The notes: generated by a model not told the origin, from the sequence alone. Counted from the stretch's first letter, positions 8,469 through 53,411 are shown. The stretch is DNA of 64,000 nt from an uncultured Acidobacteriota bacterium (GCA_963713825.1 CAVQNG010000003.1:1696001-1760000); one strand, 5' to 3'. Numbers and translations: made by a program.

Positions 8469-10850
8469 ATGATCGGGGAGACCCTCGCTCGCTACAAGAT
8501 TGTGGACCAGCTCGGGGTTGGTGGAATGGGAGTGGTCTATCTGGCCGAGGACACGGACCTCGACCGTAAGGTAGCGCTCAAGATGCTGCCGGCCGAGATG
8601 GCCGGGGACCCGGAGCGCTTGGAACGGTTTCGCCGTGAAGCGAAGGCCGTAGCCGCACTGAATCACCCCAACATCGTCACCATTTACAGCATCGAAGAGA
8701 GCGCTGGAACCCAGTTCCTCACCATGGAGCACGTCGATGGGGAGAGCCTGGATCAGATGCTGCCGCCCACAGGGATGCCGCTGTCGAAGGTGTTCGACAT
8801 TGCGGTACCCCTGGCCGACGCGTTGGCGACGGCCCATGAGCGAGGCATCGTCCACCGGGATCTCAAGCCGGCCAATATCATGGTGAACAAGGAAGGCCGC
8901 GTGAAGGTTTTGGACTTCGGGCTGGCCAAACTGACCCAGGACGACGCCCCTGAAGGAGCCGAAGGGGATCTGACTCAGATTCCGACCCGTATCGCCACCC
9001 TGACCGGCGAAGGGATGGTGATGGGCACAGCCCCGTACATGTCGCCCGAGCAAATCGAAGGTCGGGCTATGGACCACCGAACCGACATCTTCTCGCTCGG
9101 GGTCCTACTTTACGAACTGGCTACAGGACGCCGTCCCTTCGACAGCGACAATTCTGCCGGTTTGGTCTCGAGCATTTTGCGCGATACCCCGAGCTCGGTG
9201 ACGGACATCAATCCAGGGCTGCCGCGACACCTGGCACGAATCGTCCAGCACTGTCTGGAGAAGGATCCCGAGGCGCGCTACCAATCAGCCAAGGATGTGA
9301 GGAACGAGCTCAAGAGCCTGCGCCGTGAGGTCGATTCGGGTACGGTCACGACAGGCAGCGGTATCTCGCCAGCCGAGCCGCCGCTGGGTGAGCTGCGGAA
9401 GAAGTCGGGCTTGGGACTTTGGATCGGACTTGCAGCTGCCGCGGTATTGATCCTGCTGATCGGCTGGTGGGTGGGGCGTGGTGGCGGAACCGACGAAGCG
9501 ACGTCGGGTGATGTAGCTGACCGGGCCGCCCCAGTACCGGTGGCAGCACAGTCGGAGGTGCCTTCGGTGGCGATTCTGCCGTTCAAGAACCTGAGCGCAG
9601 ACCCCGACAACGAGTACTTCGCTGACGGTCTCACTGAAGAGTTGATTGGTGCGCTCGCCAAGGTCGATGGCCTGCGCATACCAGCCCGCAGCTCGGTATT
9701 TGCCCTCAAAGGGAGCACCCTCAGCGTGCAGGAGATCGGCGAGCGTTTAGGTGTCGACAACGTTCTGGAGGGCGGCGTTCGCAAGGCTGGCAATCAATTG
9801 CGCATCAGCGCCCAACTGATCAAGGTGGCGGACGGTTTCAACCTCTGGTCCGAGACCTACGACCGGGAGCTCGAGGACGTCTTCCTGATTCAGGATGAGA
9901 TTGCCACCAGCATCGGGGAAGCCTTGCAGCTGACGCTGGCGCCGGGGGGCGATAGGCTCGTACAGGCCGGGCGTAGCACCGACATTCGCGGCTACGACTT
10001 CTATCTTCGAGGACGGGGCTACTTTCGCCGCCGCACCCGTGATGACATCGAGTCGGCGCGCCAGATGTTCATCAAGGCCATCGAGATCGACCCGGAGTAC
10101 GCACCGGCCTATGCCGGCCTGGCCGACACCTACACGGAGTTCTGGCGCAACTACGAGAGTACCGATGAGAACCTGCAGCAGGCGGACCAGGCAAGCCTCA
10201 AGGCGGTTGAGATGGATCCCGACCTGGCAGAGGCACGCGCCGCCAGAGGGTACGCCCTGGGGCAGCAAAGGAAGTACGACGAGGCCAGGCAGGAGTTCGA
10301 GACGGCAATCAGTCTGAACCCCAAGCTCTTCGAGGCCTACTACTACTACGGCACTGTCGCATTTGCCCAGGGAGAGCTCAAGCGGGCCGGCGAGATGTTC
10401 GAGATGGCAACGGAGGTGGCGCCGGACGACATCAGGGCTCTGCAGCTCTTGCCTCAGATCTACCGCAGTCTTGGCAGGGAAGACGAAGTTCGAGAGGCTA
10501 GCGAGCGCCGGCTGGCACTCGCTGAGAGGCTGCTGGAGCTCGATCCGGACGACGTCCAGACACTCCTCTATGGGGCCAATGCACTGGCCACGCTCGGGGA
10601 GCGGGAGCGCAGCTTGGAATGGGCGGCACGGGTACTGGAAGTCGACACCGATGACGCTCTGGTGCTGTACAACATTGCCTGTTTCTACTCACTTGCCGGG
10701 GAAGTCAAGCCGGCGCTCGAAGCGCTCGAGCGATCCTACGAGGCCGGTCTGGCGGATCCGGAGTGGATGGAGCAGGACAGCGATCTCGACAACCTGCGCG
10801 AAGAGGCCCGCTACCAGGCCTTGGTCGAGCGCATGGAAGCCCACGGATAG
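8469..10850 (+). CDS. Hanks-type Ser/Thr kinase with TM, TolB-like N domain and TPR repeats
   Basis: LGVGGMGVVY, VALK, HRDLKPAN, DFG, GTAPYMSPEQ; SVAILPF.NLS..DNEYFADG; TPRs. Confidence 0.92.
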   Translation: MIGETLARYKIVDQLGVGGMGVVYLAEDTDLDRKVALKMLPAEMAGDPERLERFRREAKAVAALNHPNIVTIYSIEESAGTQFLTMEHVDGESLDQMLPPTGMPLSKVFDIAVPLADALATAHERGIVHRDLKPANIMVNKEGRVKVLDFGLAKLTQDDAPEGAEGDLTQIPTRIATLTGEGMVMGTAPYMSPEQIEGRAMDHRTDIFSLGVLLYELATGRRPFDSDNSAGLVSSILRDTPSSVTDINPGLPRHLARIVQHCLEKDPEARYQSAKDVRNELKSLRREVDSGTVTTGSGISPAEPPLGELRKKSGLGLWIGLAAAAVLILLIGWWVGRGGGTDEATSGDVADRAAPVPVAAQSEVPSVAILPFKNLSADPDNEYFADGLTEELIGALAKVDGLRIPARSSVFALKGSTLSVQEIGERLGVDNVLEGGVRKAGNQLRISAQLIKVADGFNLWSETYDRELEDVFLIQDEIATSIGEALQLTLAPGGDRLVQAGRSTDIRGYDFYLRGRGYFRRRTRDDIESARQMFIKAIEIDPEYAPAYAGLADTYTEFWRNYESTDENLQQADQASLKAVEMDPDLAEARAARGYALGQQRKYDEARQEFETAISLNPKLFEAYYYYGTVAFAQGELKRAGEMFEMATEVAPDDIRALQLLPQIYRSLGREDEVREASERRLALAERLLELDPDDVQTLLYGANALATLGERERSLEWAARVLEVDTDDALVLYNIACFYSLAGEVKPALEALERSYEAGLADPEWMEQDSDLDNLREEARYQALVERMEAHG

Positions 10851-27212: not shown

Positions 27213-27411
27213 TCGAGGCTTCGGGTCATTTGACCGAAGCCGCTCAATGCTGGTACAACTTCCCTCAAGTACCTGTCCTAGGCAGATGCAGTTGGGCCCT
27301 CGATGAAGGGCTAGATGCGCCCTTTGGCCATCCATGGACGTCCCGTGGAAGGGGCAGGTTCTCAAACGATGGAAGAAGCTCGAAGACGAAATCTCTAGAG
27401 AGGAAGTACTG

Positions 27412-28827
27412 ATGCCGACAGTAAAGACCCTGAGTGGTGGTGAAGCGACGATCGACGACGCAATGATCCAGGCCCTGTCCGAGAGCCTTCATGGAGATGT
27501 CGTAACAGCGGCGAGTCCGAGTTACGACGAGGTCCGGGAGATCTGGAACGCCATGATCGACCGGCGCCCCGGGGTCATCGTGCGCTGTGCCAGCGCGGAA
27601 GATGTCGTGAAGGCTGTCAACCTTGCCCGTGAGAACGAATTGCTCGTCACTGTGCGCGGAGCTGGCCACAATATTGCCGGCAGCTCGATTGCCGATGGCG
27701 CCTTGATGATCGATTTGTCGGGCATGAAGGCGGTAGCGGTCGATGTAGCGAGCAAGACGGTGACGGCCCAGCCCGGAGTCACTCTCGGCGAGTTGGACGC
27801 CGCGACACAGGAGCATGGTCTGGCCGTCTCGGTCGGCATCAACTCGACGACTGGCGTGGCGGGGCTGACCCTGGGAGGAGGATTCGGCTGGCTGAGTCGG
27901 AAGTATGGGATGACAATCGACAATCTGATTTCTGCCGATGTCGTGACGGCCAGTGGCGATCTGGTCAAGGCGAGCGCGGACAGCAACCCCGATCTCTTCT
28001 GGGCCATCCGAGGGGGTGGTGGCAACTTCGGTGTCGTGACCTCGTTCGAGTATCAGGCGCAACTTGTCGGTCCCGAGATCCTGTCCGGTCTGATCGTTCA
28101 CCCAGGTAGCGAGGCCCGAGCCTGCTTCGAGTTCTATCGAGACTTCACGGCCCAGGCACCGGAAGAGCTCACCACATGGGTCGTCATGCGGAAAGCACCG
28201 CCACTACCGTTCCTTCCCGAGGAGGTTCACGGTACCGACGTCCTGATCTTTGCGGTGATGTACACCGGAGATATGGCATCGGGGGAGAAAGCAGTCCAGG
28301 CTCTGCGCGATTTCGGCAGTCCGATCGCCGACGTGATCGGCCCCCACCCATTCGCGGGTTGGCAGCAGGCGTTCGATCCACTGCTCACGCCTGGCCTCCG
28401 GAACTACTGGAAGTCGCACAACTTCAGCGGCCTGAGCGATGAGTTGATCGACGTCCTCGTGGCCGCCGCCAGTAACATGCCGTCGCCGCACTCGGAAGTC
28501 TTCATGGCGCAGCTCGGTGGTGCTCAGAGCCGGATCGATCCCACCGCGACCGCCTACTGGCCCCGAGACTCGGCATTCACCATGAACGTCCATACGCGGT
28601 GGGAAACTGCCGCTGAGGATGAGCAGTGCGTAGCATGGGCGCGGCAGCTCTTCAACGACACCGAACCCCACGCAACGGGCGGTGTCTACGTGAACTTCAT
28701 GCCGGAAGACGAAGCGGACCGCGTCGGCAAGGCCTATGGTGGCAACTACGACCGCCTGGCTTCGATCAAGAAGGAGTGGGACCCGACGAATCTGTTTCGG
28801 GTGAATCACAACATCAAGCCCGAGTAG
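27412..28827 (+). CDS. FAD-linked oxidase (BBE/6-hydroxy-D-nicotine oxidase family)
   Basis: RGAGHN covalent FAD His, TGVAGLTLGGG.G, LFWAIRGGGGNFG, YVNF, K..WDP.NLFR. Confidence 0.9.
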   Translation: MPTVKTLSGGEATIDDAMIQALSESLHGDVVTAASPSYDEVREIWNAMIDRRPGVIVRCASAEDVVKAVNLARENELLVTVRGAGHNIAGSSIADGALMIDLSGMKAVAVDVASKTVTAQPGVTLGELDAATQEHGLAVSVGINSTTGVAGLTLGGGFGWLSRKYGMTIDNLISADVVTASGDLVKASADSNPDLFWAIRGGGGNFGVVTSFEYQAQLVGPEILSGLIVHPGSEARACFEFYRDFTAQAPEELTTWVVMRKAPPLPFLPEEVHGTDVLIFAVMYTGDMASGEKAVQALRDFGSPIADVIGPHPFAGWQQAFDPLLTPGLRNYWKSHNFSGLSDELIDVLVAAASNMPSPHSEVFMAQLGGAQSRIDPTATAYWPRDSAFTMNVHTRWETAAEDEQCVAWARQLFNDTEPHATGGVYVNFMPEDEADRVGKAYGGNYDRLASIKKEWDPTNLFRVNHNIKPE

Positions 28828-28835
28828 GGGCTTTT

Positions 28836-28933
28836 TGGGAGTGAGGCGAACGGACTCTGTCCGTTCGATCTTTGAGGGCTTGGGGATTGAGGCAGCCGAG
28901 CGTACCTTTCAGCCGGTCTTTGAGGCAGTGAGG
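28836..28933 (-). repeat. Repeat family C, two tandem units
   Basis: Reverse complement reads CACTGCCTCAAAGA-hairpin-CCTCAATCCCCAAGCCCTCAAAGA-hairpin-CCTCACTCCC. Confidence 0.75.
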
Positions 28934-29028
28934 TTGTAGCGGCCGGGCCTGTGCCGGCCGAATCCCAGAGGGAGCCACCGACTCGTGGCTCCCATACTAT
29001 TTGGTGGATCTACAGTGGAGATTCTCGA

Positions 29029-29586
29029 ATGCGACCAAGGATACTGAGTACCCTTACCCCTGCCTTGCTTCTGGGATTGGTGACCTTTCCGGCGGCAGCC
29101 GAGGAAGAGATGATGCAGTCGCCCCGGGTCGAGGTGGGCGAGGAGGCGCCACCTTTCACCCTTCCTACAACCGAGGGCCAGACCCTCAGCCCCGAGAGCT
29201 TGCGCGGGGACAAACCCCTGGTTCTGACGTTCTTTCGGGGAACGTGGTGACCGTTCTGTCGCCAGCAGCTCGGCGAGCTGCAAGCAGGTTTGGATGAAAT
29301 GCGACAACGGGGTGCCGAGCTCTGGGTGGTGAGCCCCGATGACGCGAAGAAGCTCAAAAAGTTCCGACAGCAGGAGGGGCTGGATTTCCCGGTTTTAGTC
29401 GACACGGACCTGGCGGTCAGCACCAGCTACGGCCTGATCAACGAAGCGAACCCCGTTGTGCCTCACCCGACCACCCTGATCATCGACAAGCAGGGCGTGA
29501 TTCGCTATCTGCGGGTGGACGTCGATTACAAAGTCCGTCCCTCCGTCGCAGAGCTGCTCGAAGCCCTCGATCAGCTGGGCCAGTGA
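29029..29586 (+). CDS. Peroxiredoxin-like AhpC/TSA protein with in-frame UGA (probable selenoprotein, UxxC)
   Basis: Two track ORFs share one frame; FFRGTW-TGA(29248-29250)-PFCRQQL; APPFTL upstream and VSPD, FPVLVD, PTTLIIDKQG downstream complete one domain. Confidence 0.85.
29265..29281 (+). promoter_or_regulatory. Candidate bacterial SECIS hairpin
   Basis: GCAGCTC-GGC-GAGCTGC perfect inverted repeat starting 14 nt after the UGA, with G in the apical loop. Confidence 0.65.
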
Positions 29587-50304: not shown

Positions 50305-53300
50305 CTACTTGCTTGGTCCGAACCCCGACTGTGGACGGGCCGTGGGAAACCTGAGATCGACATCGATCAGGGTCAGACACATCAGGCCTATGTCACCCGT
50401 GTGCGATACAGCGCCCAGGTGCCAATCGGCCAATGTTCCGTCCCAGAGATTGAACCAGCTCACATCGATGGTTCCCGTGGCACCGAGGGTCGCTGCCGAC
50501 GGAGCCGAATCGATCTTCAGGCTTCCACCCGAAGCGAGGGGAATATCCCAGGCATAGAGGTAGTAGTCCGAGTCTCCACCTGGAGTGGACCAACCGTGGA
50601 CCCAAACCGTCCAGGTGCCATCCATCGGCAGCAGAATATTGATTTGCTCATCGGTGCCACCCTCTGTGCTCGTTGCCGCGAGGTTTCCCAGCGGGTCGTA
50701 CAGGTAGAGGTCGAGATCTGCATCGGCCTCGGTCGCATCCGGTGGCATTGAGAACCGCAGGTAGGCAGAACCGCTCACTGGGAGTGGATGCGGATTGCTG
50801 AAGCCGTCACCTGGGTCGAAGGTCTGATCCGGGTCCTGCAGCACGTTGTCGTGAGTGACGATCGCCGGAATGAAACCGTGTGGGGCTGCGGTATAGCTGC
50901 CCGTGTAGCCGAACATCACGTCGAAACTCAGATCGCTTGTCGTGCCGTATCCCTCGAGCTCTTCGGGGCAATAGAACAGCGACGCGTTCACTGCGATCGG
51001 ACTGTAGACTTCGTAGTGTCCTGTCTTGTCCTTCCAGGTCAGCGAACCGAATCGCCACTCGCCGATCGGGGCACCCACGTTGGTGATGGTCACCTCGTAG
51101 GTGGCCGTCTGGCCACGCTTCAATTTGAATTTCGAAGGGCTGACAGTCACCTCGTAGCCGGGAGGTGCATCGACTTCTGCGTGGTACTTGCGCCATCCCT
51201 GTTCCATGGCCACGCTGGTCACGGTCCTTGTCACGGTCTGCCGTCCTGGCAGCTCGTAGATGCCGATGGAGGGAAGGTTCAGGTCGCTCGGGTCCGAGGG
51301 GACACCGATCGATTCCAAGAAGTCGCAGCTGCCAGGTGTGAAGACATCCCACTCCATGCCACACGTGAAGGCTGCGTACTCGAACAGGCCCGCGTCATAC
51401 GCCAGCCCCGGATGAACGATGGAGCCCTTCCTCCACTTGCCGCCCGGGTTGATGTGTCCCGCGCCCATGTCGAAGGGGTCGGCCGGGCTGACGCGGTCGT
51501 TGTCGACCACGTCCTGGTAGGCCGTCGTCATCATGGCCGACCTGGCCATGGCGGCGCTCCAGTGGGGTCTCGCCTGCTTGATCAGGGCGAAGATGCCAGC
51601 CACATGGGGGCTCGACATCGAGGTGCCCTGGATCGCCTGGAACAGCTCTCCTTGAATAGCCGAGCTTTCAAGGGGTGTTGGAGTGTTGCCGGCGAGGATC
51701 TGAACTCCCGGTGCGGTGATGTCGGGCTTGATGATGTCCGGGGACACCGGATTGGGTCCCCGCGAAGAGAAGTACGCCATCGACGGGGCATAGGGCCACT
51801 CGCTGTACTCCTCCGCTACGATCTCGGCAGTTGGGCTGGTTGCTGCGGCGATATAGGCCTTGATCGCCAGGCCCGGTGTTTGATCGATGTGGACCGTCGG
51901 GGTCCAATGCGAATCGCTGGCCAGATTGTCGACATCGCTGTTGTTGTAGAAGATCGTCCCGACTCCTCCTGCCATGTAGACAGCCTGGCTCTTTGCGGCG
52001 CGGGCGGAGCCCCCGCGGCGGCAGAGCACGATCTTGCCGGTAACATCAGCAGGATTCAGCGTTCCCGGAAGGCACAAGTCACCGCCGGCGAACTCGGCAT
52101 CCACCAATGGGGCCTCGGCCGCACCAGGCGTGATTGACGCACCCACGTACTCGGTTCCATCACCGAGCACCACCGTTGCCTGGAAGAAGCGACTCTGGGT
52201 GTTCGCTCCCACCGTGGTCATCCAGGGCATGGTGCCCGGGTTGCCCAGCGTTGCCGCGCCGGGTCCGGCATTGCCCGCCGACGTCGCAACGAACACGTCC
52301 GCTGCAGCGGCGAACAAGAAGGCTATTTCGTCAGCGCCGGGTGGCCCGGCCCCACCACCAACGGAGTAGTTGATTACGTCCACACCGTCGAACACGGCCT
52401 GATCGATCGCGGCCGCCAGATCCGATGTGAAACCGCCCAGATCGCCAAGTCCCTTGTAGGCCACGACATGAGCTCGGGGTGCCATGCCCGACACCAGTCC
52501 ACGGGGAATGCCGTAGATCGATGCAAAGACGCCGCCGTTTCCAGCTGCGGTCGAGGCGGTATGGGACCCGTGACCATTGTCGTCCCGGGCCGAGTCGTAC
52601 TCGGCCGGATCGGCACCGATAAGGGATCGATAGGTGTCCAGCATCTGGCGTGCGCCAATCAACTTGTTGTTGCAGGTAAAGGGCGCATCGTTGGGATTAT
52701 GGACGGTATTGCCAAATTCGCAGTTCGGCCTCGAATCGTCCAACTCGATCGGAGGCTCTGGAAAACTCCCGTCGTCCGCAAAGCTGGGATGCTCCGGCCA
52801 GATTCCGGAGTCGATGACGCCGACCACGACTCCCTCGCCGTCGAATCCCTTTAGCCAGGCACCTCCGGCGTCCGTCAAACCCAGGAAGCTCGGGCTGGAG
52901 TCGGTCTGCGCAAAGCGCATCACGTCGGGCTTGACCGCGAGAACGTCCTTCTGAGTCGCCACCGAAAGGGCCTGCTCATGGCTCATCATGGCGGCATAGC
53001 CGTTCAGTGCGACGGTGTAGCTGTGGATTTTGGCTCCCGGCCGGATCCCTGCGGCCTCAAGGGAAGCTTCGTGTGTCGCCTTCAGATGCTCAGCGTACTT
53101 TCCGACCCGAAAGCTCTTGGGATTCAGCTTCTTGCCCTTGCCGGGCTTCGTCGCCTTGAATCCGGCCTCGTCCCCTTTGTAGGCGATGACCGGATCCTGA
53201 GCCATCAAGACAATGTAGACACCGTACTCGCTCTTCTCGACGCCCTCCTGGCGTCCCAGCAGGTCGATGTCCGGGGCGTCGGTTTGCTCGGCGAGTACAG

Positions 53301-53361
53301 CCCCCGGTAGGAGGACCGCTACGGCGAGCAGCAGACTGAGCAACCGCGTGTTCCGGTTCAT
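50305..53361 (-). CDS. Secreted S8 subtilase (I9 prodomain, PA domain, Fn3-like)
   Basis: VIDSG, HGSHTAS, FSSRGP, KPDITAPG, GTSMSSPH; ATG 53361 after GGAGAGG; signal peptide. Confidence 0.93.
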   Translation of the reverse strand: MNRNTRLLSLLLAVAVLLPGAVLAEQTDAPDIDLLGRQEGVEKSEYGVYIVLMAQDPVIAYKGDEAGFKATKPGKGKKLNPKSFRVGKYAEHLKATHEASLEAAGIRPGAKIHSYTVALNGYAAMMSHEQALSVATQKDVLAVKPDVMRFAQTDSSPSFLGLTDAGGAWLKGFDGEGVVVGVIDSGIWPEHPSFADDGSFPEPPIELDDSRPNCEFGNTVHNPNDAPFTCNNKLIGARQMLDTYRSLIGADPAEYDSARDDNGHGSHTASTAAGNGGVFASIYGIPRGLVSGMAPRAHVVAYKGLGDLGGFTSDLAAAIDQAVFDGVDVINYSVGGGAGPPGADEIAFLFAAAADVFVATSAGNAGPGAATLGNPGTMPWMTTVGANTQSRFFQATVVLGDGTEYVGASITPGAAEAPLVDAEFAGGDLCLPGTLNPADVTGKIVLCRRGGSARAAKSQAVYMAGGVGTIFYNNSDVDNLASDSHWTPTVHIDQTPGLAIKAYIAAATSPTAEIVAEEYSEWPYAPSMAYFSSRGPNPVSPDIIKPDITAPGVQILAGNTPTPLESSAIQGELFQAIQGTSMSSPHVAGIFALIKQARPHWSAAMARSAMMTTAYQDVVDNDRVSPADPFDMGAGHINPGGKWRKGSIVHPGLAYDAGLFEYAAFTCGMEWDVFTPGSCDFLESIGVPSDPSDLNLPSIGIYELPGRQTVTRTVTSVAMEQGWRKYHAEVDAPPGYEVTVSPSKFKLKRGQTATYEVTITNVGAPIGEWRFGSLTWKDKTGHYEVYSPIAVNASLFYCPEELEGYGTTSDLSFDVMFGYTGSYTAAPHGFIPAIVTHDNVLQDPDQTFDPGDGFSNPHPLPVSGSAYLRFSMPPDATEADADLDLYLYDPLGNLAATSTEGGTDEQINILLPMDGTWTVWVHGWSTPGGDSDYYLYAWDIPLASGGSLKIDSAPSAATLGATGTIDVSWFNLWDGTLADWHLGAVSHTGDIGLMCLTLIDVDLRFPTARPQSGFGPSK

Positions 53362-53411
53362 GGAAACCTCTCCTTTCTGTTGGTTGTCCGAAAAGACAGC
53401 TCTTCCCACTG

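Follow-up and report, generated by a model that had tools for sequence, protein, structure and literature searches.

The window analysed here, a stretch of 64,000 nucleotides from an uncultured Acidobacteriota bacterium, holds between positions 29029 and 29586 an open reading frame that is interrupted once, by a TGA. The question raised by this locus is whether that triplet ends a short gene or is read as an amino acid inside a longer one and, if it is read, as which amino acid. The answer reached here is that the whole frame is very probably one gene for an exported selenoprotein of the UxxC kind, in which UGA-74 would be decoded as selenocysteine (Sec) by means of a bacterial SECIS (bSECIS) hairpin, and whose product, according to sequence comparison and structure modelling, would join a peroxiredoxin fold to a redox centre of the thioredoxin type.

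Gene and reading frame

The gene is a single unit. Codon 74 is the sole internal stop of the frame and lies in the context F-F-R-G-T-W-U-P-F-C-R, in which U denotes the residue encoded by UGA. The Pfam AhpC/TSA domain (PF00578) is matched across this codon with 116.8 bits against a cut-off of 26, over residues 36-160 and model positions 1-123 of 124, so that the two halves of the frame make up one domain. A preliminary description of this DNA had placed the TGA at the first Cys of a redox motif, had followed the frame beyond it to a full protein of 185 aa, and had drawn attention to a perfect 7-bp hairpin 14 nt after the TGA and to an N-terminus resembling a signal peptide. All of these features are indeed present: the TGA aligns with the Cys of homologs, the frame runs on to a terminal TGA, the hairpin lies where it had been described, and the N-terminus reads MRPRILSTLTPALLLGLVTFPAAA in front of EEE. 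Their coordinates are collected in Table 1. The ribosome-binding element listed there recurs in the homologous loci, where GGAG or GGAGG also precedes the ATG.

Table 1. Positions of the gene and of its features in the window
Feature	Positions	Strand	Remarks
Putative selenoprotein gene	29029-29586	+	185 codons including UGA-74; final stop TGA at 29584-29586
Shine-Dalgarno-like GGAG	29017-29020	+	8 nt upstream of the ATG at 29029; read from sequence
Signal-peptide-like N-terminus	29029-29100	+	Residues 1-24 (MRPR, hydrophobic core, AAA/EEE)
UGA codon 74 (U74)	29248-29250	+	First residue of U-P-F-C; in Cys-form homologs, this column holds the first Cys of W-C-x-x-C
C77 codon (TGT)	29257-29259	+	Partner cysteine of the UxxC centre
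Candidate bSECIS hairpin, GCAGCUC-GGC-GAGCUGC	29265-29281	+	Stem of 7 perfect pairs with the apical loop GGC; separated from the TGA by 14 nt
P147 codon	29467-29469	+	Presumed cis-proline facing the redox centre; nearly invariant; aligns with the Pro of ResA PLPT

Homologous loci and database relatives

A genome collection was scanned with an alignment of six sequences (the protein and its five closest database relatives), which yielded four loci (L001-L004), all of them in Acidobacteriota MAGs and with protein identities to the window of 46-76%. Locus L001, from a Thermoanaerobaculia MAG, encodes a protein 76% identical to that of the window and is syntenic with it. The proteins of L002-L004 are 46-47% identical to that of the window and 91% to one another; as these three loci are not mutually independent, the set amounts effectively to three lineages (pairwise protein identities of 76%, 46-48% and 91%). 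In 4/4 loci a TGA occupies the same column, within W-U-P-Y-C or W-U-V-Y-C, and is followed by an open and conserved frame down to a normal stop, the C-terminal half being strongly conserved at the protein level. Homologs containing a UGA, whose absence the preliminary description had named as an argument against a selenoprotein, do therefore exist.

Its further expectation, that annotation pipelines would split the gene in two, is borne out by the public protein collection. Every relative above 51% identity is a fragment there, and the close relatives, at 57-97% identity, consist only of N-terminal pieces of 73-75 aa or C-terminal pieces of 79-100 aa. The best match of similar length is a Cys form (P0003) with the motif W-C-P-H-C and only 51% identity. 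Shorter proteins gave 36 matches, with identities of up to 97%, of which 15 were inspected: all five N-terminal pieces among them end in ...FFRGTW, that is, at W73, and the other ten are C-terminal pieces that start at varied points past the U column. An exhaustive search of representatives recovered five proteins of 103-112 aa starting at query residues 76-83. Judged by their sequences, these database fragments presumably stand for UGA forms.

A quickly computed tree has 70 rows: five are proven UGA forms, 21 are C-terminal fragments and the other 44 are full-length proteins, 43 of them with CxxC. The clade of the window (13 rows, SH-aLRT 98) consists of two UGA forms and 11 C-terminal fragments, Cys forms being absent, and L002-L004 form a second clade together with two fragments (SH-aLRT 97). 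At least two Acidobacteriota clades of UGA forms are well supported in this tree, which does not resolve how these clades are related to the Cys forms. Among the homologs, P0050 (192 aa, 41-44% identity) shows W-R-P-F-R at the position of W-U-P-F-C, with Arg for both redox residues, and may be a redox-dead relative.

The hairpin downstream of the UGA

The hairpin at 29265-29281 has every property of the bSECIS consensus described in the legend to Fig. 2 of PMC13188914. The model asks for an apical loop of 3-9 nt (3 nt here), a G within the first two loop positions (GG here), an upper stem of 4-16 bp (7 bp), a spacing between UGA and loop of 16-37 nt (21 nt) and a minimum free energy of -7.5 kcal/mol or below, where the hairpin folded alone reaches -11.6 kcal/mol, a stability attained by 0/200 shuffled sequences. 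Longer contexts fold unremarkably (z = -1.52 for 63 nt and z = -0.24 for 103 nt).

How much this agreement is worth depends on how easily it arises. Of the TGA triplets in the window, 15/888 on the plus strand and 16/831 on the minus strand (1.7-1.9%) are followed, at a spacing of the SECIS type, by a perfect hairpin with 7 bp or more. The peptide encoded at the hairpin, QQLGELQ, is codon-palindromic, and for this reason 7.9% of its synonymous recodings, drawn with the codon usage of the window, again produce a hairpin of the consensus type with 7 bp or more; in a single sequence the hairpin is consequently only mild evidence. The weight of the case comes from conservation, because the TGA and an identical hairpin are kept in 4/4 homologous loci.

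The 17 nt of the hairpin are identical in 5/5 sequences (the window and L001-L004) and stand at the same distance from the TGA. They are contained in the longest invariant run of the five-way nucleotide alignment, which measures 20 nt (29265-29284), while the next longest measures 8 nt. The same restriction is seen in the choice of codons for identical residues: between the window and L002 the codon is the same in 6/6 cases within the hairpin and in 30/75 elsewhere, and between the window and L001 in 7/7 and 84/130, respectively. The loop GGC is likewise invariant, although its Gly has four codons. Since the upper stem never varies across the window and L001-L004, it shows no covariation, and its pairing is a prediction. 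A lower stem is predicted by RNAalifold with one covarying pair among what are effectively three lineages, too small a support.

A repeat element was considered as the source of the hairpin and rejected, given that each locus, like the window, has a single copy of the hairpin. A permissive Rfam search of positions 29200-29360 (E <= 10) returned three unrelated chance matches only, and offered no usable bacterial SECIS model. Part of the conservation could stem from the peptide, judging by the sequences of the Cys forms: QLGELQ (window 29263-29283) also occurs in P0003, the closest Cys-form homolog, and the family consensus is QLxxLQ. The RNA signal and the peptide QLGELQ seem to be mutually constraining, or else the Cys form P0003 descends from a Sec form.

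Decoding of the UGA

Sec is classically recognised by a UGA that takes the place of the nucleophilic Cys in the redox motif of a protein with Cys-form homologs, and column 74 (C or U) is at least 90% conserved among the 49 aligned sequences. On these grounds, the residue at UGA-74 is presumably Sec. It is proposed that, when the ribosome arrives at this codon, the hairpin would act as a bacterial SECIS and recruit SelB with Sec-tRNA(Sec), that Sec would be inserted, and that translation would then continue to the real stop at the end of the frame. The phylum Acidobacteriota includes Sec users, as three selenoprotein families with four selenoproteins are tabulated for Acidobacteria (PMC1794560, Table 2) and three selenoprotein genes for Occallatibacter riparius (PMC12013277, Table 2), and Sec-type hydrogenases are reported from Acidobacteriota MAGs (PMC13582414). 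Searches with NCBIfam on 29 ORFs of the window and with Pfam on 36 ORFs of the window and 32 of the loci revealed no selA, selB or selD gene, either in the 64-kb window or in the locus flanks, which total about 70 kb, and ARAGORN detected no tRNA of any kind, tRNA-Sec included, in the window or in L001-L004.

Several other explanations of the interrupted frame have to be weighed against decoding as Sec. The TGA could be a nonsense mutation of TGC in an ordinary CxxC redoxin, with a hairpin placed behind it by chance, which would make this a dead gene; a lone hairpin of this type is after all expected at 1.7-1.9% of TGA sites and in 7.9% of the recodings of the peptide. The comparison of loci speaks strongly against it. 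The TGA column is kept in 4/4 loci, with an intact and conserved downstream half, at 46-76% identity, a divergence that excludes the loci being assembly copies of one sequence; the synonymous sites of the hairpin are frozen; and five clusters of N-terminal fragments end at the same residue. Since the TGA is conserved across lineages, a nonsense mutation is in practice excluded. A general reassignment of TGA to an amino acid (genetic code 4 or 25) is just as improbable and has nothing in its favour except the open frame: TGA ends 16/36 long ORFs of the window, the gene itself and its homologs in L002 and L003 terminate with it, and the Pfam-supported genes are full length under code 11. Being an ordinary stop in the window, in those 16 ORFs as in the gene itself, TGA excludes a reassigned code.

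Two further explanations accept that the UGA is read through. In one of them, the hairpin would merely slow the ribosome, and a near-cognate Trp or Cys tRNA would read the UGA at low frequency, with no part played by Sec machinery. The small size of the hairpin and the lack of Sec machinery in the window and the locus flanks are in line with this idea, which is nonetheless very unlikely, given that the UGA falls exactly on the nucleophilic Cys, where Trp would destroy function, that the loop, the position of the G, the stem, the spacing and the energy of the hairpin all agree with the bSECIS model, and that one of the four Gly codons has been retained throughout in the loop. In the other, the UGA and its SECIS would serve to insert Cys, by a tRNA of the tRNA(ReC) type (selC*) acting via a SelB-like factor, and the product would be an ordinary CxxC protein. 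A tRNA(ReC) has been reported to decode UGA as Cys with a SECIS downstream (Vargas-Rodriguez et al. 2018, cited in PMC13582414), and Sec and Cys at a SECIS-directed UGA are indistinguishable by sequence analysis alone. This explanation is also unlikely, if a little less so: no tRNA of this type occurs in the window or in L001-L004; among genomes with UXXU-type hydrogenases, genes like that for tRNA(ReC) have been reported only for Armatimonadota, Desulfobacterota and JAPLJL01, always next to a canonical selC in the same genome (PMC13582414); and to maintain a costly UGA and SECIS over three diverged lineages merely for Cys would bring no obvious advantage over TGC. Decoding of UGA-74 as Sec is the explanation preferred here.

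The window was also scanned for additional selenoprotein genes, with 239 TGA sites flanked by at least 40 open codons on either side and with G-U pairs allowed in the hairpins. Besides the TGA at 29248, five sites have a nearby Cys and a hairpin; comparison with the ORF table places each of them within a Pfam-supported gene that is read in a different frame or from the opposite strand, and none is credible.

Probable export

The N-terminus of the protein shows two K/R residues, a 12-aa stretch with a mean Kyte-Doolittle value of 2.07 and an AxA site. The same anatomy, consisting of one or two basic residues, a hydrophobic stretch of at least 12 residues and a small-x-small site, is shared by five read-through proteins and five fragments. 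The cleavage-type site is AxA or VAA/EE in the clade of the window (the window, L001 and the five fragments) and ASA/Q in L002-L004. In the AlphaFold2 model, confidence in the region of the signal peptide is low (pLDDT 61-75). A twin arginine is found only in L001 among the 10 N-termini, and a Tat signal is for this reason not conserved.

Judged from this simple anatomy, the N-terminus is a probable signal peptide of the Sec type, which would send the protein into the periplasm by way of the Sec translocon, with cleavage expected after A-A-A24. It is possible that an uncleaved membrane anchor, like that of ResA, takes the place of a cleaved signal. Acidobacteriota are diderm bacteria, and the redox domain would face the periplasm whether the chain is cleaved or anchored. 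The export of a selenoprotein is not new in itself, because SaoB and SaoC, both with signal peptides, have already been described (bioRxiv 10.1101/2022.07.06.499078).

Fold and active site

AlphaFold2, supplied with the 49-sequence alignment, returns a single compact domain with a mean pLDDT of 92.3 and a pTM of 0.83, in which only residues 1-30 fall below 80. The model is closest to the AhpE and archaeal Bcp peroxiredoxins (TMq 0.74-0.78, rmsd 1.4-1.8), with ResA at a TMq of 0.64-0.68. A profile of the family likewise matches BCP/Prx proteins first (A. pernix BCP, 2cx3, E = 9.7e-34), with ResA behind (2e-25), and a PDB search with the single sequence retrieves ResA first (4nmu, E = 2.6e-13).

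Peroxiredoxins are defined by the signature P-x-x-x-T/S-x-x-C and have a conserved catalytic Arg before the F-I-I-D strand. The residues that are nearly invariant in the 49 sequences are F68, R70, W73, C/U74, C77, D125, P147 and R170; C77 is fully invariant in this alignment, and its aligned counterparts are the peroxidatic Cys in BCP and the second CxxC cysteine in ResA. When the protein is compared with BCP, only C77 is kept: R70 stands at the signature Pro, U74 at the Thr/Ser and P147 at the catalytic Arg (AKRAVFIV in BCP versus PHPTTLII). With these three positions replaced, the peroxiredoxin active site is not conserved. The term peroxiredoxin-like, used in the preliminary description, is consequently apt for the fold and the Pfam family and has to be given up for the catalytic residues, which are those of a thioredoxin-type UxxC with a cis-Pro.

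In the model, a helix spans residues 75-93, with C77 in its first turn and P147 opposite. Because the helix starts at residue 75, U74 would cap it in the way the first Cys does in thioredoxins. The proline of the facing loop is cis in solved thioredoxin-type relatives. The alignment and the model agree on a predicted U-x-x-C/cis-Pro redox centre of the thioredoxin type, set on a peroxiredoxin scaffold.

The mature protein would have about 160 residues with a peroxiredoxin (AhpC/TSA) fold. By analogy with thioredoxin-fold chemistry, the selenolate of U74 would be the nucleophile that attacks the oxidised substrate, giving as intermediate either a mixed selenenylsulfide with the substrate or a selenenic acid; C77 would resolve this intermediate to an internal Se-S bond, which would then be re-reduced by a periplasmic reductant. 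As substrates, protein or small-molecule disulfides of the kind used by ResA/TlpA appear somewhat probable, and hydroperoxides rather doubtful. Disulfide/thiol exchange is favoured over the reduction of hydroperoxides because the ResA-like motif is present and the peroxiredoxin Arg is lost.

Genomic surroundings

The gene upstream, encoding an FAD/BBE-type oxidase (27334-28827), ends within a hairpin (AGCCC-GAGTAG-GGGCT) that is followed by TTTT (28817-28836, plus strand). This hairpin was read directly from the sequence and is not listed by a terminator scan with a stricter T-run rule. It resembles a terminator and, if it is one, the selenoprotein gene would be a transcription unit of its own. 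The leader of the selenoprotein gene, of about 100 nt, contains two hairpins on the plus strand, CGGCCGG/CCGGCCG at 28940-28960 and a 9-bp stem at 28970-28993, the second of which is followed by ATACTATTTGG and was flagged as terminator-like. Both are kept in L001 (at about 9910-9965), the second with a swap of G-C to C-G at its base, and the leader motif is unique within the window. These leader hairpins could be an attenuator or a leader structure. A scan for sigma-70-like promoters upstream of the gene found none; the consensus may not apply to this phylum.

No neighbouring gene is common to the group of the window and L001 and the group of L002-L004 (Pfam on 36 window ORFs and 32 locus ORFs), so that the genomic context hints at neither a substrate nor a reductant. 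The window is rich in peptidases (M3, S9, tricorn/S41, M1, S8, S10 and amidohydrolases) as well as in Ser/Thr kinases with TPR or TolB-propeller domains and in FHA/SpoIIE phosphatase regulators. Its sole Rfam match above the gathering threshold is a c-di-GMP-I-GGC riboswitch (RF03167, 53413-53510, minus strand, 66 bits against a cut-off of 59), located directly 5' of a large S8 subtilase-like gene with PA and fn3 domains (50305-53409, minus strand), an arrangement of sequences that suggests control of a secreted protease by c-di-GMP. The GC content of 61.6%, together with the gene content, fits the Acidobacteriota (Thermoanaerobaculia-like) origin suggested by L001.

Significance and relation to known systems

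The main value of these results is one of annotation, given that the gene and all its close relatives appear in public protein sets as two meaningless fragments. Because only fragments are annotated and no curated NCBIfam model reaches its cut-off, a redox function that is probably periplasmic and conserved in Acidobacteriota goes unseen. The gene would add a well-supported selenoprotein to a phylum of soil and sediment with few catalogued selenoproteins, and it would imply the Sec trait in these MAGs. The candidate SECIS, very small and invariant, could be used to study the specificity of SelB in Acidobacteriota. How selenoproteins are made, and what they do, is understood no differently after this analysis.

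A more far-reaching proposal, which is speculative and rather unlikely as a whole, is that the UGA forms represent a distinct and so far uncatalogued subfamily of exported selenoproteins. In it, replacement of Pro by Arg, of Thr by Sec and of Arg by cis-Pro would have turned the peroxiredoxin scaffold into a periplasmic selenol enzyme, perhaps a selenoperoxidase resembling GPx instead of a disulfide reductase, and a mini-SECIS of 17 nt, unchanged between proteins only 46% identical, would at the same time supply the codons of QLGELQ. If this were true, the RNA signal would restrict changes in the protein sequence and the reverse, and QLGELQ would survive as a relic in the Cys form P0003.

Among curated models, the NCBIfam selenoprotein families of the thioredoxin/peroxiredoxin fold show weak similarity to the protein: the SelL-related redox protein model (NF040769) scores 51.1 bits against a cut-off of 120, WAxxUGC_long (NF041054) 35.0 bits against 300 and PrxU (NF040737) 29.0 bits against 270. 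As all scores are far below the cut-offs, none of these models would name the protein.

The oxidoreductases of the ResA/TlpA/CcmG type resemble the predicted protein in being exported and in their G-T-W-C-x-x-C motif and P-T cis-proline stretch, which align with those of the window protein; the best NCBIfam match of the latter is in fact a ResA subfamily, at 66.9 bits and far below the cut-off of 170. They differ from it in having Cys instead of Sec and in a structural match weaker than that of AhpE/BCP. Cytochrome c maturation genes were not found near the gene of the window or the loci (NCBIfam and Pfam on ORFs), nor were DsbD/CcdA redox partners among 29 (NCBIfam) or 36 (Pfam) window ORFs and 32 locus ORFs.

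The BCP/PrxQ and AhpE peroxiredoxins share the fold (TMq 0.78, TMt 0.93 and rmsd 1.5 for AhpE 4x0x) and have their peroxidatic Cys at the position of C77. They depart from the protein in the rest of the active site, where their P-x-x-x-T/S-x-x-C corresponds to R70...U74..C77 and their catalytic Arg to P147.

By its Pfam family and its motif, which are the published definition, the protein is assigned to a known kind of selenoprotein, the Prx-like thiol:disulfide oxidoreductase, or Prx-like 1. It shares with this family the AhpC/TSA domain, the Sec as first residue of UxxC and the existence of Cys-form homologs. A 2026 review describes the family (PF00578, UxxC) as "predicted with high confidence" and names WP_010940744.1 as its representative (PMC13188914). 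Prx-like 1 accounts for 225 sequences in the GOS survey (PMC2398784, Table 2), and tables of earlier surveys list it in 8 and then in 28 genomes (PMC1794560, PMC5029168). The main texts of PMC2398784, PMC1794560 and PMC13188914 use the term signal peptide 0 times. Compared with the family as described, the clade of the window is set apart by belonging to Acidobacteriota, by its conserved probable signal peptide and by its invariant 17-nt hairpin.
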